A stretch of 39,175 nt of DNA from Minisyncoccota bacterium. Lineage in GTDB: Bacteria; Patescibacteriota; Minisyncoccia; Phycocordibacterales; Phycocordibacteraceae. Location of the stretch: the NCBI GenBank assembly GCA_041664865.1, contig JBAYJU010000002.1:1-39175 (forward strand). The letters are read 5' to 3'. Position 1 is the first letter of the stretch; each line of letters opens with the position of its first letter. A program made the translations under genes and the position numbers. Shown piece by piece: positions 2,482 through 37,174 of this stretch. A model generated the notes under the pieces. It did no database searches. It was not told the origin of the DNA and saw nothing but the letters and a program-made list of their open reading frames with translations.

Positions 2482-4017
2482 ATGGATATACTAGTCGCCA
2501 TCGTCGGAGGTTTCGCGAGTGGTATATTTCTCCGCTCGCTTTTTAATTTCGGGTGGTCGCCGATTGTGTTTGTAGTTTTGATTGCTGGAATTTTTGCTGG
2601 CGCAAGATTTTTTGCGGAGTCGCGCCGAGCGTACTCGCTCGGCGCGGTGTTCTGTATTTTCATCGCGCTCGGCATGATGCGCGCGATGATTGCTGATACT
2701 CCACTTCCCGCGGCATTTGCGGGTGATCTCAAACATCGAGTTTCGTATGAGGGTGTGGTTGTCTCCGACCCTGACGTGCGCGACTCGAACCAGCGTGTTG
2801 AAGTGCGCATTTCCCATGGCGATTGGACCGCCACAATGCTCGTAGTCGCTCCGCGCTCGCCTAGCGTAATGGTCGGCGACACTGTACGCGTGTCTGGCAC
2901 ACTCGCAGTACCAGAACCATTTACAGGCGACACTGGTCGAATATTTCGCTACGACAAATATCTGCAGCGCGATGATGTGCGCTTCATGCTCAATTACGCA
3001 TATCTGCGCGTAACGAAACCTGCGCCATGGTATTCGATTCCAGCAGCTCTTGCGCGCGTGAAGCACTCGTTCCTAAATGGTCTCAACGCGACTCTGCCAG
3101 AACCGTACAGCTCGCTCGCCGGTGGCGTGGTAATAGGAGGGAAGACAGGTCTCGGGAATGAACTCCAAGATGCGTTCGTCCGTAGTGGCCTAGTGCAGAT
3201 CATCGTGCTCTCTGGCTACAACATAATGGTCGTAGCTGAATGGATAATGGCGGCACTCGCGCTCACCCCATTATCGAGACGATGGGGCACTGTTTCTGGA
3301 GCGCTTGCGGTGTTCGCTTTCGTCGGCATCGCGGGCGCATCGTCTACTGCTATTCGGGCTATGCTCATGGCGTTCATCGCGCTCTATGCGCGCGCGACCG
3401 GTCGCACTTACGCAGCGGGTCGCGCACTTCTCGCCGTCGTATTTCTAATGCTCATTTGGAATCCGCTCTATCTCGTATTCGATCCTGGCTTCGGCCTCTC
3501 GGTCGTCGCAACTGCCGGGCTCATCTGGCTAGCTCCGATTATTGAAAGAATTTTGGACTTCGTAAGTCACTCATCAGATGAGGGACTTACGAAGTCCCTA
3601 CATGGGTTTTGGAAAAATGTAGTGGCGACTACATTTGCCGCGCAAATAGCAGTTCTACCACTTTTGCTTTATGACATGGGACTTTTCTCGATTGTTGCCA
3701 TACCGGCAAACATCATTGTTGCGCCACTAGTACCGCTAGCGATGGGACTATCTGCTATCGCAGGATTTGCAGGAATGATATTTGGCACACTCGCGCCAAC
3801 TATAGGGATTGCCCTCGCATTTCCTGCATATCTCGCAAATGCCGCACTCATCGCAATCGCGTGCGGGAGCGCGGCTCTCCCGTTCTCGGCTTTCACGCTT
3901 CCGCCATTTCCATTCTGGCTCGTGCTCGCCGCATACGCGGCACTCATTTATATAGCCGCTTCGAAACGCTTCTCGACTAAAGACCAGTTGATGTTGGCGA
4001 AGAACGCATCAATATAA
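2482..4017 (+). CDS. comEC: ComEC/Rec2-family DNA internalisation channel (membrane domains only)
   Basis: 511 aa and polytopic. It has an N-terminal OB-like region followed by the competence domain (VRSGLVQIIVLSGYNI, AAQIAVLPLL). No C-terminal metallo-beta-lactamase domain is present in this ORF. Confidence 0.8.
   Translation: MDILVAIVGGFASGIFLRSLFNFGWSPIVFVVLIAGIFAGARFFAESRRAYSLGAVFCIFIALGMMRAMIADTPLPAAFAGDLKHRVSYEGVVVSDPDVRDSNQRVEVRISHGDWTATMLVVAPRSPSVMVGDTVRVSGTLAVPEPFTGDTGRIFRYDKYLQRDDVRFMLNYAYLRVTKPAPWYSIPAALARVKHSFLNGLNATLPEPYSSLAGGVVIGGKTGLGNELQDAFVRSGLVQIIVLSGYNIMVVAEWIMAALALTPLSRRWGTVSGALAVFAFVGIAGASSTAIRAMLMAFIALYARATGRTYAAGRALLAVVFLMLIWNPLYLVFDPGFGLSVVATAGLIWLAPIIERILDFVSHSSDEGLTKSLHGFWKNVVATTFAAQIAVLPLLLYDMGLFSIVAIPANIIVAPLVPLAMGLSAIAGFAGMIFGTLAPTIGIALAFPAYLANAALIAIACGSAALPFSAFTLPPFPFWLVLAAYAALIYIAASKRFSTKDQLMLAKNASI
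3555..3597. repeat. Family-1 hairpin-doublet palindrome embedded in frame in comEC
   Basis: GGACTTCGTAAGTCACTCATC-A-GATGAGGGACTTACGAAGTCC is a 43-nt palindrome with one mismatch (3569/3583). It is translated as DFVSHSSDEGLTKS. Confidence 0.85.
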
Positions 4018-13648: not shown

Positions 13649-15001
13649 ATGGACAAAGGAAACACTAAGGAACTTTGGGAACACATACTGACGCAGGTTG
13701 AGTTGTCCGTATCTACTGCAAATTTCAATACATGGTTTCAAAATAGCTTCATAGTGAAGATCGGGGAAGATGGCGTCATATATATCGGAGTACCTAGCCA
13801 ATTCTTCAAGGATTGGTTCTTGAAGAAATTTCATACAACCCTTCTCAAGATCGTGCGCGGTGTCTCGTATGAGTTCCGTAATATCGAATATGTGATTGTA
13901 AAAGACGAGCGGCGCAAGGCGCCGCGAGAAAACAAAGCAAACAAGGGCGCGCTAGAGCTCCCGCTTGAGGAATTTTATATAAACAAGAGTGATAACCTAA
14001 ATCCGCGCTACACATTCGACACATTCGTCATCGGATCGTTCAACAATCTCGCGTATGCGGCAGCTCAGGCCGCGCTCAAGCGCCCAGGTATCACGTATAA
14101 CCCGCTTTTCATATATGGCGACACCGGCCGTGGCAAGACGCACCTTATACAAGCGATAGGCAACCAATTCAAGAAAGAGTACCAGGGACGCAAGGTGTTT
14201 TATCTTACATCTGAGAAGTTCGCTGTCGACTTCTCAGATGCTCTGCAGTCTGGAACGGCTAACCGTTTCAAAGATAAATACAGGCAATACGATCTGCTCA
14301 TCATGGACGATATCCAGTTTCTATCCAAGAAAGACAAGACACAGGAGGAGCTCTTCCACCTATTCAACACACTGCATGACACGAACAAGCAGATTATCTT
14401 CTCGTCTGATCGAGCGCCAGCTTCCATACCAGACATAGCCGAGCGCCTGAAGGGTCGCCTTGCTAGCGGTATGGCGGTCGACATCAGCGAGCCTGACGCT
14501 GAATCTAGGATGGCCATTGTGCAGAAGAAGGCGGCACTGCATGGCGTCATGCTTTCTGATGAGGTTATAGAATATGTCGCGACTACACTTTCGGGCTCTA
14601 TTCGAGAATTAGAGGGTATGGTGAACAGTATCGTCTGTCATGCACAAGTGAAAGGCTCTGCGCCAGATATCGCCGAGGTGCGCCTGTCGCTCAGGTCATT
14701 CACTCGCCCACAGAAGAACGTGTCGGTAAAGAATGTCGTCGACAAAGTCGCTGAATTCTACGGTATCGATGAAGAAAGCATCTATGAGAAGACTCGTAGG
14801 AGGGAAGTGGTGCGACCACGGCAGATAATCATGTATCTCCTGCGCGAAGATTTTAATATCTCATACCCGACCATAGGCACGAAACTAGGTGGACGTGACC
14901 ATACGACAGTTATCCACTCCTGTGAGAAGATAAAGCGTGAAGTACTTGTGGATAGCGACCTTTTAAAGGAGATTCAAAATATCAGGACCCTACTTGTATG
15001 A
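13649..15001 (+). CDS. dnaA: Chromosomal replication initiator DnaA
   Basis: GDTGRGKTHL Walker A, LLIMDDIQFL Walker B, and the C-terminal DNA-binding region KLGGRDHTTVIHS. Confidence 0.95.
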   Translation: MDKGNTKELWEHILTQVELSVSTANFNTWFQNSFIVKIGEDGVIYIGVPSQFFKDWFLKKFHTTLLKIVRGVSYEFRNIEYVIVKDERRKAPRENKANKGALELPLEEFYINKSDNLNPRYTFDTFVIGSFNNLAYAAAQAALKRPGITYNPLFIYGDTGRGKTHLIQAIGNQFKKEYQGRKVFYLTSEKFAVDFSDALQSGTANRFKDKYRQYDLLIMDDIQFLSKKDKTQEELFHLFNTLHDTNKQIIFSSDRAPASIPDIAERLKGRLASGMAVDISEPDAESRMAIVQKKAALHGVMLSDEVIEYVATTLSGSIRELEGMVNSIVCHAQVKGSAPDIAEVRLSLRSFTRPQKNVSVKNVVDKVAEFYGIDEESIYEKTRRREVVRPRQIIMYLLREDFNISYPTIGTKLGGRDHTTVIHSCEKIKREVLVDSDLLKEIQNIRTLLV

Positions 15002-23485: not shown

Positions 23486-23956
23486 ATGGAAACAATTGTA
23501 CGAACACTGGCCGAGCTCGAAACAGAAGCATGCCGCTTCGTGGATGGCCTCGCGCCGAGTCCGCGAGGCGCGACTCTGGTAACACTCTCGGGCGAGCTTG
23601 GGGCTGGGAAGACTGCATTTACCAAGGCTGTAGCAAAAGCTCTTGGGGTTACTGACATGGTTACAAGCCCCACCTTCGTACTCGAGAAGATCTACCAACT
23701 TCCAGAATGTGGACATCCGGTGTCTACAGAAGGACACCGGATGTCCACATTCAAACGGCTGGTGCATATCGATGCGTACCGGCTCGAATCAGGAAAAGAT
23801 CTTGCGACACTCGGTTTCGATGAGCTCATACAAAACTCAGATAATCTAATTATGCTCGAATGGCCAGAAATAGTTGCTGACGCACTTCCTGCTCCGAGTA
23901 TTCGCATTTCTATCGTTGCGAACCCAGACGGCTCTCGTACAATTTCATATGTCTAG
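23486..23956 (+). CDS. tsaE: tRNA t6A biosynthesis ATPase TsaE (YjeE)
   Basis: LSGELGAGKTAFTK P-loop, SPTFVLEKIY and HIDAYRL motifs. It carries a roughly 16-codon palindromic insert. Confidence 0.85.
   Translation: METIVRTLAELETEACRFVDGLAPSPRGATLVTLSGELGAGKTAFTKAVAKALGVTDMVTSPTFVLEKIYQLPECGHPVSTEGHRMSTFKRLVHIDAYRLESGKDLATLGFDELIQNSDNLIMLEWPEIVADALPAPSIRISIVANPDGSRTISYV
23705..23752. repeat. Family-2 palindrome embedded in frame in tsaE
   Basis: GAATGTGGACATCCGGTGTC-TACAGAAG-GACACCGGATGTCCACATTC has perfect 20-bp arms and an 8-nt loop (checked base by base). It is translated as ECGHPVSTEGHRMSTF. Confidence 0.9.
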
Positions 23957-26354
23957 AAAAACAATAAGCAAGAAACGCATAGTGCTTCTCGACAGTCATG
24001 CGATTATCCATCGTGCATATCATGCACTCGAGAAGGCGGAAATGACCGGCCCAGATGGCACACCTACTGGCGCTCTCTATGGACTCACGTCGATGCTCCT
24101 GAAAATCATCACAGACCTCAAGCCGGATTACATCGCTGCGTGCTATGACTTGCCGAAGCCGACAATCCGCCACGAAGCATATGCTGACTACAAGGGCTCG
24201 CGCAAAGCGACCGATGACGCACTCGCTCAGCAACTGCAAGAGTCGCGCAAGGTATTCGAAGCATTTTCCATACCAATGTATGAGCGGGAAGGGTTTGAGG
24301 CTGATGATCTGCTCGGTACAATCGCACACGAATTGCGCGAAGAAGAGGGCGTCGACGTCATCATCGCCTCGGGCGACATGGACACGCTCCAGCTCGTCGA
24401 CGATGAACGCGTCCGCGTGTACACGCTAAAGAAAGGCATTCAAGACACGATTCTATACGACGAGAAGTCGGTCGTAGCACGGTTTGGATTCAAGCCTAAA
24501 CTCATTCCGGATTGGAAGGGTTTGCGTGGCGACCCGTCTGACAATATCAAGGGTATCCCTGGTGTCGGAGAGAAGACCGCGACTGATCTCATAAAGCAGT
24601 TCGGCTCGATAGAAGATATTTACGCGACACTCGAGAAGAAGGGCGAATCCGCTTTCCTTAAAAATGGAGTGAAAGCACGCATGATAGGGCTGCTCAAAGA
24701 GCACGAAGATGAGGCGCGTTTCTCGAAATCGCTGGCGACCATCAGACTAGATGTTCCGATTGCGTTCACGCTCCCGGAACATGCGTGGCGCGAGACGGCC
24801 GATTCCGAGAAAATGCTCGCCATGTGCGACGAGTTCGGTTTCAGGACCCTCAAGGATAGAATCAAGACATTGTTCGGCGCAATGAGTGGTTTCGTAAACC
24901 CATCATCTGATGATGGGTTTACGAAACCACTCATTGAAGAAGAAATAGATGACACACGTTTCAGGGAGGCGCAGGCTATGCTCTGGCTCATTTCGTCGGA
25001 GTTCACGAACCCTTCGCTCGATGATATCCTCGCGTTCGCCAAAGAGCGCACCTTCGAAGTGGCATATGAGAAACTTGAGAAACAGATTGCTGAGCTCGGG
25101 GAAGTGCACGGTGTGTATGACAACATTGAGAAACCGCTCATCCCGGTCATACTCAAGATGGAGGAGCGAGGGGTGCTAATAGACACTGGCGTACTGAGCG
25201 GTCTTGCTGACACATATCGCGCTGAGCTCGAGAGTATCGAGAAAAAGATTTATAAGGAGGCAGGGCACGAGTTCAATGTGAGCTCGCCGAAACAGCTGGG
25301 TGACGTGCTCTTCGACGAGATGAAACTCGTCCCAGATAGGCAGAAGAAGACTGCGGGCGGCGCTCGCTCTACGCGTGAAAGTGAGCTCGAGAAGATTCGC
25401 GACGCTCACCCAATCGTTGCAGACATTCTCGAGTATCGCGAGCTGAAGAAGCTGCTCTCGACTTATATAGACAATCTGCCGGCGCTGCTTGACGCGGGCC
25501 ATCGCCTTCATGCCGAGTTCATCCAGACTGGCACTACTACCGGGCGCATGGCTTCGCAGAATCCGAACTTGCAGAACATACCAATGCGCTCAGAGCGCGG
25601 TCGGGCCATAAGACACGCATTCATTGCGCCTGAAGGATTCACTCTGTTGGCGCTCGACTATTCACAGATAGAGCTACGTCTAGCGGCGATACTCTCTGGT
25701 GATGAAAAGCTTTGTGAGATATTCAAGGGTGGCCGCGATGTTCATACAGAGGTGGCTGCTCAGGTTTTCCATGTCGCGCCTGAAAGTGTAGATGCTGAGA
25801 TGCGCCGCCGCGCGAAGGTAATCAACTTCGGCATCCTGTACGGTATGGGAATCAATGCTCTGCGACAACAGCTGGGCACCACGGCGGCCGAGACGCATGC
25901 TTTTTATGAAAATTATTTCAGTACATTTAAGACGTTGTCAGAATATCTTGAGTCGACCAAGGGTTTCGCGCGGACGCATGGATACACGGAGACGCTCTTC
26001 GGTCGCCGCAGACAATTCCCGGAGATGAAGTCATCATTGCCATACGTGCGCGCACAAGCTGAGCGCATGGCAATCAATGCTCCGATACAGGGCACTGAGG
26101 CCGACGTAATCAAGCTCGCGATGGTGAGTGTCGACAGCATGCTCGAGAGGGAGGGTGCTAGTACAGACGCGTACCTACTGCTTCAAGTTCATGACGAGCT
26201 TGTGTATGAGATACGCGATGGCCGTGTCGCCAGTCTGAGTGCAAAGATAAAAGAAATAATGGAATCCATCTTGTCGCCAGAGCAAACGCATGGTGTTCCA
26301 ATCATAGCCACGATGAAATCCGGCCCGAACTGGGGCGATATGCGTTCGTTATGA
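23949..26354 (+). CDS. polA: DNA polymerase I
   Basis: 5'-nuclease domain followed by the polymerase motifs DYSQIELR, KVINFGILYGMG and QVHDELV. The start ATG at 23949 overlaps the tsaE stop (ATGTCTAG). Confidence 0.95.
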   Translation: MSRKTISKKRIVLLDSHAIIHRAYHALEKAEMTGPDGTPTGALYGLTSMLLKIITDLKPDYIAACYDLPKPTIRHEAYADYKGSRKATDDALAQQLQESRKVFEAFSIPMYEREGFEADDLLGTIAHELREEEGVDVIIASGDMDTLQLVDDERVRVYTLKKGIQDTILYDEKSVVARFGFKPKLIPDWKGLRGDPSDNIKGIPGVGEKTATDLIKQFGSIEDIYATLEKKGESAFLKNGVKARMIGLLKEHEDEARFSKSLATIRLDVPIAFTLPEHAWRETADSEKMLAMCDEFGFRTLKDRIKTLFGAMSGFVNPSSDDGFTKPLIEEEIDDTRFREAQAMLWLISSEFTNPSLDDILAFAKERTFEVAYEKLEKQIAELGEVHGVYDNIEKPLIPVILKMEERGVLIDTGVLSGLADTYRAELESIEKKIYKEAGHEFNVSSPKQLGDVLFDEMKLVPDRQKKTAGGARSTRESELEKIRDAHPIVADILEYRELKKLLSTYIDNLPALLDAGHRLHAEFIQTGTTTGRMASQNPNLQNIPMRSERGRAIRHAFIAPEGFTLLALDYSQIELRLAAILSGDEKLCEIFKGGRDVHTEVAAQVFHVAPESVDAEMRRRAKVINFGILYGMGINALRQQLGTTAAETHAFYENYFSTFKTLSEYLESTKGFARTHGYTETLFGRRRQFPEMKSSLPYVRAQAERMAINAPIQGTEADVIKLAMVSVDSMLEREGASTDAYLLLQVHDELVYEIRDGRVASLSAKIKEIMESILSPEQTHGVPIIATMKSGPNWGDMRSL
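24880..24936. repeat. Family-1 perfect 57-nt palindrome embedded in frame in polA
   Basis: 28-bp arms around the centre at T24908, with no mismatches (checked base by base). It is translated as AMSGFVNPSSDDGFTKPLI. Confidence 0.95.
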
Positions 26355-27076
26355 TTTATCTTTTCCACGGGAGCGATGCCGAGAAGGTTCGCACGAAGGC
26401 GTTCGCTTGGGTTGCGGCTGCGCGGTCTAGGGAGCCGAATCTAGCGTATGTGCGCTTGGCTCGTGAAGAGTTGAGTGATGCTGCGCTTCAAGATGCGGCA
26501 ATGTCTGGAGGGCTCTTCGTTTCGCGCCTGCTAGTGCTCATAGATGATCCGTACCCGCCTACTCATTCGATCTTTGATGAAGAAAGGGTGGACACCGGAT
26601 GTCCACCCCCATATGTTGGACATCCGGTGTCCAACCAAGATGGGCTACTTGGTGAACATGTAGACGCACTCGCGGCTTCTGACAACGCCATCATAATTCT
26701 CGCGCCGAAACTTGCGGCGGTGAAGGCGAAGAGGCTCGTCGCGAAGGCGAAAGTTGAATACAAATTTGATCTGACAACCCAGCGCCGCGAAGCGGCGCGG
26801 GGATTCAACTCAGCACTTGTGAACGCGCTCGCTAATCGCTCACGCGCCCAGCTCTGGCTCGAAGTGAATCGTGCTCTCCGTGCGGGCGACGCGCCCGAAA
26901 TGCTTCACGGTCTCCTTCACTGGAAGGCGCGCGACATTATGGAGAAGGGTAGTCGTGCATGGTCGCCAAAAGAATCGCGAGCGCTCTCGCTCGCACTCAT
27001 CGAGCTCCTACAGTCCTCTCGTCGTGGAGGTCTAGGCTTGGCACTTTCTCTCGAAAGGTTTTCATTGTCGATATAG
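26351..27076 (+). CDS. holA: DNA polymerase III delta subunit-like protein
   Basis: N-terminal IYLFHGSDAEKV is typical of HolA. ATGA overlap with polA. The call is from weak motif recognition plus context. Confidence 0.55.
   Translation: MIYLFHGSDAEKVRTKAFAWVAAARSREPNLAYVRLAREELSDAALQDAAMSGGLFVSRLLVLIDDPYPPTHSIFDEERVDTGCPPPYVGHPVSNQDGLLGEHVDALAASDNAIIILAPKLAAVKAKRLVAKAKVEYKFDLTTQRREAARGFNSALVNALANRSRAQLWLEVNRALRAGDAPEMLHGLLHWKARDIMEKGSRAWSPKESRALSLALIELLQSSRRGGLGLALSLERFSLSI
26586..26635. repeat. Family-2 hairpin doublet embedded in frame in holA
   Basis: Hairpins at 26586-26608 (9-bp stem, loop CCGGA) and 26615-26635 (8-bp stem, loop TCCGG). The cores 26589-26605 and 26617-26633 are exact reverse complements. 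It is translated as VDTGCPPPYVGHPVSN. Confidence 0.9.
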
Positions 27077-30620: not shown

Positions 30621-31347
30621 GAGTAGCAAGGGTAGCCCTTGCTACTCGTTTTCATCTTCTGGCTTTGTCAGCCAATCAGCGATGTGCGAGACGACGTCTT
30701 TCTTTGAAGAAAAGTAATCGGGGAATTTTGTAGGATCAGTAATAGAGTGTGAATTGTTTAGATAGGCACTGTAGCTACTGTATGGATATGTTTCCACGAA
30801 GCTCATTAAATTGTTCCCGGGGTGAATTTTCTTTTGCCACTCTGGCTCTTTAAGTTTTGCAGGGTTTAGGTGAATATAAGAAAATAGATATTCTAAATAT
30901 CGGTCAGTGTCAGCGTGAGTGCTTCTGAATGGTCCTTGGAAGAGGGAACCGCTGCGCTCGTTCTTGGTATTGAAATACATCGAATATCCTGTTTGGAGCT
31001 TGAGCATGTACTTAGAAACGCCACCTTCAACCAATGGTGTCACTAAAAGATGGAAATGATTTGGCATAAGACAGAATGCACCGATGGCTACCAAGGGTGC
31101 TCCACGATCTCGATTGAAAACATCTTCATATTTTGTTGCCTTGAGTACGTTGCCTATGCGCATTTCTTGTGCGGTGTTAGCCAGATACAGAAGCATCATG
31201 AATCTTCGGTAGTCACTCGACGATGAGAAGATAGTGCGCTTATCTACACCTCTGTTGTAAAGGTGATAGTACTCATTTTCAACAAAGGAAATTTTTCTTT
31301 CCATCCTTCGAATTGTATCACAAGGTAGCAAGGGCTACCCTTGCTAC
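30621..31347 (-). mobile_element. Minimal RAYT unit: HUH transposase gene bounded by exact inverted GTAG hairpins
   Basis: The left hairpin at 30621-30647 has a 12-bp stem and loop TAG. The right hairpin at 31325-31347 has a 10-bp stem and loop CTA. The 23-nt cores are exact reverse complements (GTAGCAAGGG-TAG/CTA-CCCTTGCTAC). Confidence 0.7.
30642..31304 (-). CDS. REP-associated tyrosine transposase (RAYT / IS200-like Y1 HUH transposase)
   Basis: HUH motif LMPNHFHLLV and the catalytic Tyr region YIHLNPAKL. The start MERKISF at 31304 is preferred because the upstream ATG at 31331 lies inside the hairpin. The stop codon lies inside the left hairpin. Confidence 0.75.
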   Translation of the reverse strand: MERKISFVENEYYHLYNRGVDKRTIFSSSSDYRRFMMLLYLANTAQEMRIGNVLKATKYEDVFNRDRGAPLVAIGAFCLMPNHFHLLVTPLVEGGVSKYMLKLQTGYSMYFNTKNERSGSLFQGPFRSTHADTDRYLEYLFSYIHLNPAKLKEPEWQKKIHPGNNLMSFVETYPYSSYSAYLNNSHSITDPTKFPDYFSSKKDVVSHIADWLTKPEDENE

Positions 31348-32544: not shown

Positions 32545-32557
32545 GTGCATATATAAG

Positions 32558-32598
32558 AATCAAAAACGGGCGCCGCGAAGCGGCGCCCGTTTTTGATT
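32558..32598. terminator. Perfect bidirectional rho-independent terminator
   Basis: AATCAAAAACGGGCGCCGC-GAA-GCGGCGCCCGTTTTTGATT has a 19-bp stem. Confidence 0.85.
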
Positions 32599-32621
32599 CT
32601 GAGTCCGTGTATACTATTCCC

Positions 32622-35653: not shown

Positions 35654-35708
35654 CGAGAGCACCAAATGAAAAAACGGCATTATGCCGTTTTTTCATTTGG
35701 TGCTCTCG
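35654..35708. repeat. Perfect 55-nt palindrome that includes the tRNA-Arg(GCG) 3' end and its terminator
   Basis: CGAGAGCACCAAATGAAAAAACGGCAT-T-ATGCCGTTTTTTCATTTGGTGCTCTCG has 27-bp arms (checked base by base). Confidence 0.9.
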
Positions 35709-35772
35709 GTGGGAATCGAACCTACATCGCGACCTCCGCAAGGTCGTGTCCTATCCATTGAACGACGAGAGC
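35698..35772 (-). tRNA. tRNA-Arg (anticodon GCG), CCA encoded
   Basis: Hand-folded: acceptor GCTCTCG/CGAGAGC, anticodon arm CGACC-TTGCGGA-GGTCG, T arm GTAGG-TTCGATT-CCCAC with one A-C mismatch. Confidence 0.8.
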
Positions 35773-36760: not shown

Positions 36761-37174
36761 ATGCGGTACCTCGGAGTGGATTATGGAAGTTCAAAAATCG
36801 GGCTCGCGCTCTCTGATGAGGCTGGCACGATGGGCTTCCCACATTCGGTCATATCGAACACGCCACGGCTCGTAGATGATCTGTGCGCTCTCGTTGCGAA
36901 AGAGGGCGTCGGCGCGGTGGTAATCGGCGAGTCGCGCACGCTCGCTGGAGGGGAGAACCCGATTGCGAAGGATGCTCGCGCACTCGGCGTGAGGATCGCC
37001 GAGTGCGCGAGCATCCCGGTATTCTACGAATCAGAAGTATTTACAAGCTCTGAGGCGCGCCGTGCTCCGGCTAAAGAGATGAAGACGCGCGCCGCTCCGC
37101 GTCGCGCGAATGTGGACGCCTCGGCTGCTGCACTTATTCTTACGAGTTATTTGTCCCATACGAATCATGAATAA
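36761..37174 (+). CDS. ruvX: Holliday junction resolvase-like / pre-16S rRNA nuclease YqgF (RuvX)
   Basis: MRYLGVDYGSSKIGLALSD. Confidence 0.85.
   Translation: MRYLGVDYGSSKIGLALSDEAGTMGFPHSVISNTPRLVDDLCALVAKEGVGAVVIGESRTLAGGENPIAKDARALGVRIAECASIPVFYESEVFTSSEARRAPAKEMKTRAAPRRANVDASAAALILTSYLSHTNHE

Follow-up and report, generated by a model that had tools for sequence, protein, structure and literature searches.

The palindrome of tsaE

The tsaE gene analyzed here belongs to a Minisyncoccota bacterium of the candidate phyla radiation (CPR) and carries a 48-nt palindrome in frame. It lies in a stretch of 39,175 nt (GenBank assembly GCA_041664865.1, contig JBAYJU010000002.1, positions 1 to 39,175 of the forward strand), the whole of which is called the window below. 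The palindrome contains two inverted copies of a 15-nt core, an organization that resembles that of REPINs, the doublets of repetitive extragenic palindromic (REP) sequences. Hairpins with a core of the GGACATC[C/G]GATGTCC type, its usual form, are referred to as family 2, and a separate hairpin family of the window as family 1. L-numbers (L001, L003, L145 etc.) designate DNA stretches from other genomes that were compared with the window. The features of the locus are the following:

23486–23956, plus strand: tsaE, the host gene, 156 amino acids (Pfam PF02367, 2.7e-28; NCBIfam equivalog T6A_YjeE, 80.4 bits for a cut-off of 60.1 bits)
23705–23752, no strand: 48-nt family-2 doublet, REPIN-like, two inverted 15-nt mini-hairpins that together make one 20-bp hairpin, translated as ECGHPVSTEGHRMSTF
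23705–23724, plus strand: left arm GAATGTGGACATCCGGTGTC, 100% complementary to the right arm
23725–23732, plus strand: 8-nt spacer TACAGAAG
23733–23752, plus strand: right arm GACACCGGATGTCCACATTC, 20/20 complementary to the left arm
23711–23725, plus strand: core copy 1, GGACATCCGGTGTCT, encoding GHPVS
23732–23746, plus strand: core copy 2, in inverted orientation, GGACACCGGATGTCC, encoding GHRMS

The original prediction, made from the letters of the window, had announced a palindrome with perfect 20-bp arms in frame in tsaE and a core devoid of stop codons in its six frames; both statements are borne out, although the full 48-mer is open in only five of six frames (TAG in frame 3 of the minus strand). 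The 15-nt unit of the window, GGACATCCGGTGTCC, forms a mini-hairpin of its own (GGACAT / CCG / GTGTCC), in which one pair is a T.G wobble. The RNA hairpin predicted for the 48-mer has a stability of -39.4 kcal/mol on the plus strand and -37.7 on the minus strand. Since its arms match at 20 of 20 positions (by our estimate, about 1e-6 perfect 20-nt inverted repeats are expected per 39 kb), since the window has four occurrences of the core pattern compared to 0.01 expected from shuffles and since the identical 48 nt are found in two further assemblies (ENA ERZ27249449 and Logan SRR6484324), this palindrome is real and well beyond what chance would give. An artefact of the assembly, for instance a fold-back chimera, would have in its favor only the general tendency of assemblers to mishandle palindromes; it is hardly conceivable given these other assemblies, the intact reading frame and the related doublets that independent projects recovered at the equivalent codon position of four further species. 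The element is not a rho-independent terminator, as it lies inside an open reading frame (ORF) and is followed by AAACGGCTGG rather than by a T run. In searches against Rfam 15, the window matches only tRNAs and RNase P at the gathering score, and E-value thresholds give only sub-threshold chance matches at the tsaE element and no family.

The loop encoded by the palindrome

The call of the gene is the same in L001 and L002, and its product displays the P-loop, the SPTF and HxDxYR motifs and the TsaE fold (profiles, alignments and model). Its alignment with the TsaE proteins of Bacillus subtilis (5np9) and Thermotoga maritima (6n9a_E) shows a gap of 15–16 residues exactly at the element, between SPTFxLxxxY and hhHxDxYRL; EKIY and LVHID are separated by 21 residues in the window compared to six in B. 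subtilis. In the AlphaFold model (predicted local distance difference test score, pLDDT, of 85.6; template modeling (TM) scores of 0.75–0.79 to the TsaE structures 1htw, 5np9 and 6n9a_E), residues 72–90 have no secondary structure and a low confidence, with a pLDDT <50 at 77–84. They are flanked by strand 67–71, which follows the SPTF motif, and by strand 91–96, which leads to HxDxYR. When mapped on the structure, as had been proposed, the insert falls in this unstructured turn, and the model thus describes the 48-nt element as translated into a predicted disordered surface loop of 16 residues in a permissive β-hairpin turn. In the TsaBDE complex of T. maritima, the SPTFT motif and Tyr82 touch TsaD at the nucleotide site (PMC6009658). 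Since both lie at the two bases of the β-hairpin, the turn bearing the insert would, from its topology, point away from the interface with TsaD.

The statement that the element accounts for the excess length of the loop calls for a refinement. It fits the comparison with B. subtilis and the alignment gap; however, hairpin-free relatives have, by our measure, a loop of 9–10 residues, and the excess over the baseline of the lineage is therefore about 11–12 residues and not 16. Could the loop be an adaptive feature of TsaE in this lineage, with an incidental palindromy of the DNA? This appears very improbable. The GH[PR]MS motif does recur in 19 of the 120 closest homologues (surveyed as proteins, a subset being checked at the DNA level), but GHPMS and GHRMS are reverse complements of each other in DNA, i.e., the two orientations of one hairpin, and the other occupants of the site encode unrelated peptides (GSEAS, GGETA, GLTKS, DENAKA), all of them from palindromes. 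Furthermore, the loop is predicted to be disordered, and its position at the end of the β-hairpin would place it far from the contacts that the SPTF motif and Tyr82 make with TsaD (PMC6009658).

Distribution of the core of family 2

One genome per species from 185,579 species was scanned for the 17-mer TGGACATCCGRTGTCCA, and the matches were examined as 8-kb stretches. At least 119 stretches carry it: about 88 titled CPR, 14 metagenome-assembled genomes (MAGs) titled “bacterium”, several of which carry a CPR-type tsaE or transposase gene, and 17 non-CPR. The CPR groups among the matches listed are Saccharibacteria, Paceibacterota/Parcubacteria, Moran-, Nomura-, Kaiser-, Giovannoni-, Falkow-, Niyogi-, Ryan-, Taylor- and Nealsonbacteria and Minisyncoccia. 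The non-CPR matches look like chance, since most of them have no palindromic flank beyond the T/A demanded by the search pattern; the exceptions are L172, with a flank of 12 nt, and L129, with one of 3 nt, and both may be CPR contigs placed in the wrong bin. The core is massively enriched in CPR genomes. The CPR matches show a median of 4–5 extra complementary bases on each side of the core, which always lies inside a longer hairpin. The outer stem of this hairpin is constant within a genome and different between genomes: ATGAT is found three times each in L183 and L168, TCTTT three times in L147 and ATATAT in the six loci of the UBA2100 MAG. Among the matches listed, this MAG thus has six loci, JACOYO01 five and LBYO01 four, while the window has two (four cores in 39 kb). 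Doublets are present in about 17 of the at least 119 loci and also in L264, L003, L265 and L266. Viral contigs scanned for the 15-mer yielded 54 single matches, judged to be about the chance level; one contig of IMG/VR (L062, 2425–2460) carries a direct tandem pair of GGGACATCCGGTGTCCCGG, being the sole viral match with two copies. The sequence of the core was not found in the indexed literature, nor was any conserved target or guide motif found outside the stem in the flanks of the core.

The tabulation of coding and intergenic copies suggested with the original prediction was made on the core-bearing loci of many genomes. With a core counted as coding if it lies at least 15 nt inside an ORF of at least 100 amino acids, a crude criterion as some of these ORFs are probably no genes, 72 of 136 cores are in ORFs compared to 84% of random positions of the same loci (p = 6e-18); the core is also found in intergenic DNA. 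Coding DNA thus contains fewer cores than expected but is far from free of them. The copies in ORFs occupy all three phases in both orientations (GHPMS, 18; GHRMS, 10; WTSDV, 25; DIRCP, 11; DIGCP, 8), in agreement with the proposal that the core could enter genes in any phase and orientation.

This distribution bears on the possibility that no mobile element was involved and that the palindrome was formed where it now lies, by template switching or quasi-palindrome correction during replication, which would have lengthened and perfected a small inverted repeat already present. Hairpin-templated correction (quasi-palindrome mutagenesis) yields perfectly matched arms. Such arms, perfectly complementary in each species though their sequences differ between species, are what is found at the tsaE site, where the baseline loops already hold palindromes of 4–5 nt. 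However, an origin in place is contradicted by the presence of the core beyond tsaE, in the window as in other genomes, and explains neither an identical 15-nt core at unrelated loci and in distant CPR classes nor the flanking of transposase genes described below. We consider it improbable, even if correction in place could still keep the two halves matched after their arrival.

RAYT-like transposase genes and proposed mobilization of the hairpins

REPs, REPINs, the REP-associated tyrosine transposases (RAYTs, TnpA-REP) and the “REPtrons” are well described in Proteobacteria (PMC3733652, PMC5581495, PMC3116915, PMC8266576). All five clusters of three or four cores within about 1 kb (L118, L145, L147, L168 and L183) bracket a Y1_Tnp gene. 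Overall, tblastn detected a transposase gene in 15 of the at least 119 loci, and a core lies within about 40 nt of the end of such a gene in at least 11 of them (L088, L096, L118, L123, L138, L145, L147, L168, L174, L179 and L183). The bracketed genes encode 216–238 amino acids, match Pfam Y1_Tnp with E-values of 3e-4 to 6e-9 and have as sole NCBIfam match REP_Tyr_transpos, below its cut-off. Their products share the motifs YHxxNRG, NHYHLL (the HUH motif), GYxxYFN..R.G.L and YIHLNP. H83-x-H85 and Y143, the latter within YIHLNP, are invariant in 41–49 sequences, and Y143 is presumably the catalytic tyrosine. The family has at least 7659 homologues (a lower bound, at E ≤1e-10); where these are named, they are called “transposase” in CPR bins or MAGs.

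Cores are also found in frame inside the transposase genes, where they take two fixed positions, one preceding the HUH motif and the other following the YIxLN motif. L145 has two transposase genes, and each of them has a different hairpin family, present both around it and within it. Hairpins of the family present in the flanks were observed inside the genes of L118 (5489–6212), L145 (700–1900), L147 (2414–3160) and L183 (1555–2305), and the consensus of the transposase family shows “DIxxP” at the first internal hairpin position.

The window has a gene of this type, flanked by hairpins of another kind:

30645–31304, minus strand: RAYT-like Y1/HUH transposase gene, 220 amino acids (Pfam Y1_Tnp, 28.9 bits for a cut-off of 23 bits; NCBIfam REP_Tyr_transpos, E-value 6.8e-9, below the cut-off of 80 bits)
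30621–30647, no strand: GTAG-tagged hairpin GAGTAGCAAGGG-TAG-CCCTTGCTACTC, just downstream of the RAYT-like gene
31325–31347, no strand: GTAG-tagged hairpin GTAGCAAGGG-CTA-CCCTTGCTAC, just upstream of the RAYT-like gene

This gene is related to that of L147 (tblastn, 40% identity, E-value 1e-44). A phmmer search of its product against PDB sequences found nothing, and a profile of 13 sequences gave only weak matches (2xm3, E-value 0.035; 4er8, E-value 0.58); the comparison of folds therefore decided its RAYT-like identity. The best PDB match of its AlphaFold model (pLDDT 78.8) by Foldseek is 4er8_A, the Escherichia coli TnpA-REP bound to a REP hairpin (E-value 1.4e-5, TM score 0.67 on the target), which ranks above the IS608 and ISDra2 transposases (2a6m, 2xma and 2vjv, E-values of about 6e-4 to 1e-3). 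The gene and the GTAGCAAGGG-nnn-CCCTTGCTAC hairpins that bracket it are a REPtron-like unit. The tag of these hairpins is the classical REP tag, and they have no other copy in the 39 kb.

Taken as a whole, these results lead us to consider, with a probability of roughly 70%, that the 48-nt palindrome of tsaE is a REPIN-like doublet of a REP-like mini-hairpin belonging to a CPR-wide repeat family that a RAYT-like transposase would mobilize. By analogy with the action of TnpA-REP on REPs, this transposase would recognize the family-2 hairpin on single-stranded DNA and spread or maintain its copies. The copies that enter genes would survive only where they keep the frame, add no stop codon and encode a loop tolerated by the protein. 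The two halves of the tsaE doublet remain complementary by compensatory changes, through either selection on the hairpin or a homogenizing process.

Several observations weigh against this interpretation. In the window, no transposase gene is flanked by family-2 hairpins: the cognate gene of family 2 was not seen there since the RAYT-like gene has a different flanking hairpin. The transposase homologues remain below the NCBIfam RAYT cut-off (22–44 bits compared to 80) and have the weak PDB sequence matches mentioned above. Family 2 lacks the GTAG/CGTC tetranucleotide of canonical REPs as well as any conserved motif outside the stem, and its copy number appears low: the complete genome CP179888.1 (640 kb) contains the exact 17-mer twice. 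Within species, no polymorphism for an empty site was found, and mobility was not observed; moreover, the tsaE site is common to relatives at about 70% identity and the element found there is therefore old. The crudeness of the coding criterion should also be counted here.

Occupation of the tsaE site in related species

The TsaE homologues sharing 65–75% identity with that of the window, which come from CPR metagenome bins, have a highly variable loop length at the site of the element, and related loci display the same string of genes: pilB, tsaE, polA and a holA-like ORF. The 9–10-residue loops are mostly encoded by sequences with only chance palindromes of 3–5 nt, with three exceptions: L186 (family-1 hairpin with 9-nt arms), L214 and L217 (AT-rich arms of 6 nt). 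Where the loop has at least 11 residues, its coding sequence is nearly always a long palindrome, located at the same codon position. Hence, the alignment of orthologues provides short loops without hairpin and long ones with palindromes, and not the long ancestral loop devoid of palindromic DNA that would have spoken against an inserted element. At least five hairpin families occupy the site, in many related species:

family 2, with a GGACATCCGATGTCC core
GGACTTACGAAGTCC-type hairpins (L186 and L197)
ACTTGGAGGTTCGGCCTCCAAGT (L185)
an element with 18-nt arms (L192)
CAGATGTC-G-GACATCTG (L215)

Every orthologue with a GHPMS loop contains exactly GGACATCCGATGTCC, and the flanks of this core vary by species yet stay complementary (AACTT...AAGTT, AAACGT...ACGTTT, CGCAAAG...CTTTGCG). 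A loop of 11 residues, mostly xLG....KF, is found in 34 of the 120 closest homologues. The xLG....KF loops fit an ACTTGG-4nt-3nt-4nt-CCAAGT hairpin with a variable upper stem, some of them by DNA checks and the rest as judged from the peptide. On a neighbor-joining tree of the 120 proteins, too poorly resolved with so short a protein to tell numerous gains from numerous replacements, the distribution of family-2 carriers takes 15 parsimony changes compared to a mean of 18.7 for random ones.

The window and its four nearest relatives (L264, L003, L265 and L266) all have doublets at the tsaE site, with perfect or near-perfect stems of at least 19 bp. Their cores differ (GGACAT-CCG-ATGTCC, GGACAT-CCG-GTGTCC, GGACAC-CGA-GTGTCC, GGACAC-CAA-GTGTCC), and the T.G wobble of the window links the T-A form (GHPMS) to the C-G one (GHxVS) as their intermediate, a T-A/T.G/C-G series that is kept across species. 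In the alignment of the five doublets, 95% of the cells pair, compared to 27–46% when the partner is slid, and both sides are altered in 7 of 21 pairs. Since the five relatives share doublets with compensatory changes, the doublet is old at this site and its halves evolve in concert: the occupation of the site predates the divergence of the closest relatives and there was no recent clean insertion of 48 nt. Matched halves would result from selection acting on the hairpin, from correction templated by it or from overwriting by the current repeat variant of the genome, and these data cannot separate the three processes.

These features also suit the hypothesis that the tsaE hairpin is a functional nucleic-acid structure under selection, its likeness to a repeat resulting from co-option. 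It could for instance be an mRNA processing, stability or translation-pausing element of the tsaE-polA-holA-like string, a perfect 20-bp RNA duplex being a plausible substrate of RNase III. In most of the 120 closest TsaE homologues, some sequence coding for a hairpin is found at this codon, the five relatives keep their long stems through the seven compensatory pair changes, orthologues with a protein identity of only 65–75% share the very nucleotides of the core, and the predicted stability of the RNA is -38 to -47 kcal/mol. However, the loop is short in about 18 of the 120 homologues, and no long palindrome is present in those examined as DNA; several unrelated hairpin sequences occupy the site; and the same core also lies in genes unrelated to tsaE, between genes and around those of transposases. 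This hypothesis, which is compatible with a REPIN-like origin, seems to us unlikely without being negligible.

A broader proposal is tentative and less likely than not: one codon position of the essential gene tsaE, and similarly the site of the holA-like ORF, would be a long-lived landing pad of a CPR clade, where REP-like hairpins of several families, which evolve by compensatory change with the halves of each doublet perfectly matched in all species, have been co-opted as a nucleic-acid signal. This signal might control the tsaE-polA-holA-like genes, for example through RNase III or ribosome pausing, or serve the radiation-wide RAYT-like protein as a recognition site; the hairpins carried by RAYT-like genes inside their own sequence hint at autoregulation. 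The 15-bp word shared across CPR classes would then mark an undescribed, possibly domesticated, transposase-hairpin partnership of reduced genomes.

Near tsaE, a pair of bAvd and RVT_1 genes resembling a diversity-generating retroelement and a relB/yafQ toxin-antitoxin pair were observed in one related genome (L004, 14916–16320; L005, 13939–15343). A link with diversity-generating retroelements was considered for the bAvd and reverse transcriptase genes of L004 and L005 and rejected, as none is found near tsaE in the window or in the other loci.

Comparison with known palindromic elements

Family 2 has the REP-type features of repeats at unrelated loci, doublets, flanking of transposase genes and an HUH protein with a TnpA-REP-like fold. 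Like it, the REP/REPIN-RAYT systems consist of short imperfect palindromes of 20–40 nt, often in inverted doublets that make a longer hairpin, with G.T wobbles in the stems and genome-specific variants, and copies flank a homologue of Y1/HUH transposases (in other CPR genomes, in the case of family 2). Both REPs and CPR hairpins are mostly intergenic with some copies in frame, notably in replication and repair genes; in the window, polA, the holA-like ORF, ruvX, comEC and tsaE have in-frame palindromes, which belong to family 2 only in tsaE and in the holA-like ORF. REPs lying in frame have been reported before, with many cases in genes of replication and repair (PMC3733652). However, family 2 differs from REPs in the following respects: (i) it lacks the GTAG or CGTC tag, which is present in the hairpins of the RAYT-like gene of the window, (ii) one 15-nt core is common to several CPR classes whereas REP cores are species-specific, (iii) its copy number appears low, from units to tens per genome compared to hundreds, (iv) the CPR proteins (about 220–240 amino acids compared to 165 for the E. 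coli TnpA-REP) are divergent and below the NCBIfam RAYT cut-off, (v) the CPR transposase genes often carry a hairpin in frame inside themselves, and (vi) orthologous sites of housekeeping genes are occupied in many species by different families. Because of these differences, we did not file family 2 as a canonical REP. The RAYT surveys consulted do not mention CPR, and a literature search combining RAYT and CPR gave no relevant paper.

Transposases of the IS200/IS605 insertion sequences (IS), such as TnpA of IS608 and ISDra2, have the same fold as the CPR proteins, and the sub-terminal hairpins of these IS are recognized on single-stranded DNA. However, the CPR hairpin copies are not the ends of a larger IS, and the best structural match of the window transposase is TnpA-REP and not an IS transposase. 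The organization of IS200/IS605, in which distinct left-end (LE) and right-end (RE) hairpins bound a mobile segment inserted 3' of a fixed tetra- or pentanucleotide, was not found: the copies are solitary hairpins or doublets of 23–50 nt without conserved flanking target. No tnpB was seen beside the transposase genes examined, although no systematic search for tnpB was made.

Rickettsia palindromic elements (RPEs) were reportedly presented by Ogata et al. in 2000 as “selfish DNA in protein-coding genes”. From their description, they resemble the tsaE element as palindromic repeats in frame in essential genes of a reduced-genome, host-dependent bacterium, translated at surface positions that the fold tolerates. 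Likewise, family 2 is in frame in tsaE and in the holA-like ORF, encodes a low-confidence loop between strands and has element-free orthologues of its host genes. RPE-1 elements are longer, about 100–150 nt. In contrast to RPEs, the CPR hairpins are linked to transposase genes and several families occupy one site in different species; the host phylum also differs. RPE-4 and RPE-6 have themselves been equated with REPs (PMC3733652).

TIGR-Tas systems were set aside, since there is no tandem array at the family-2 sites. PARCELs (palindromic amphipathic repeat coding elements) are longer tandem coding repeats that give amphipathic modules of surface proteins. By their description in Mollicutes (PMC2996958), they share with the tsaE element a palindrome of the DNA translated in frame, whereas the latter is a single short hairpin or doublet in a housekeeping enzyme.

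Overall, this is a REP/REPIN-like element in a new phylum, in-frame REPs themselves being already known. The sharing of the core across CPR, its flanking of RAYT-like genes and the long occupation of the tsaE site by several families were invisible from the window alone. CPR genomes are tiny and streamlined and are generally thought to be poor in repetitive DNA. A CPR-wide hairpin family tied to this large set of RAYT-like genes would give a new handle on the dynamics of these genomes, and the REP/RAYT partnership would extend well outside the phyla in which it has been studied. The case is also a clean natural example of translated palindromes tolerated in essential enzymes (TsaE, PolA, the holA-like protein, ComEC and RuvX). 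For annotation, it explains both the odd low-complexity loops of CPR proteins (GHPMS, WTSDV, DIGCP) and the frequent contig breaks at such palindromes.

Other palindromes of the window

The second family-2 locus of the window lies downstream of polA:

26586–26636, no strand: two adjacent family-2 mini-hairpins with cores at 26590–26604 and 26618–26632, in frame (VDTGCPPPYVGHPVS)
26351–27076, plus strand: host ORF, downstream of polA, weakly holA-like (NCBIfam holA, E-value 3.8e-5, below the cut-off)

The mini-hairpins have short palindromic flanks of their own (GGGT...ACCC and GTT...AAC), and all six frames of the locus are open. The host ORF has no Pfam match but is syntenic in L003–L010. Its orthologues in L007 and L009 are devoid of the family-2 element, and other palindromic doublets occupy the same site in L003 (5638–5678) and L004 (10199–10241), with arms of 20 and 21 nt, respectively. 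The centers of these two doublets share CATC-N-GATG, which is also the center of the family-2 core.

A perfect palindrome with 28-nt arms and a 1-nt center is in frame in the linker of polA (24880–24936, MSGFVNPSSDDGFTKPLI). It is built of GGTTTCGTAAACC-type units around a CATC-N-GATG center, and none of the four polA orthologues compared (L003, L004, L007 and L009) has a palindrome at this site. In ruvX, a perfect palindrome with 20-nt arms (36970–37016, KDARALGVRIAECASIP) overlies coding sequence of conserved length, the gene being as long as its orthologue of L003, and is not an insertion.

Family 1 is represented in a ComEC-like gene (Pfam Competence, 1.5e-38) by an in-frame doublet, GGACTTCGTAAGTC-ACTCATC-A-GATGAGG-GACTTACGAAGTCC (3555–3597, DFVSHSSDEGLTKS). 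Two further family-1 units, GGGACTTACGAAGTCCC and its inverse, lie 39 nt apart at 926–1020 between a RecJ-like ORF and an RNase H-like gene and can together form a hairpin of about 95 nt.

In the related genomes, a Mur ligase gene (L009, 16008–17297) is called in two pieces in L009 and in one in the near-identical L010; a LAGLIDADG-like ORF (14105–14938) lies near the split gene of L009. Finally, two intergenic perfect hairpins of the window, with arms of 21 nt (32556–32600) and 27 nt (35654–35708) and A/T runs, are terminator-like, and the latter overlaps the end of tRNA-Arg(gcg) (35698–35772).

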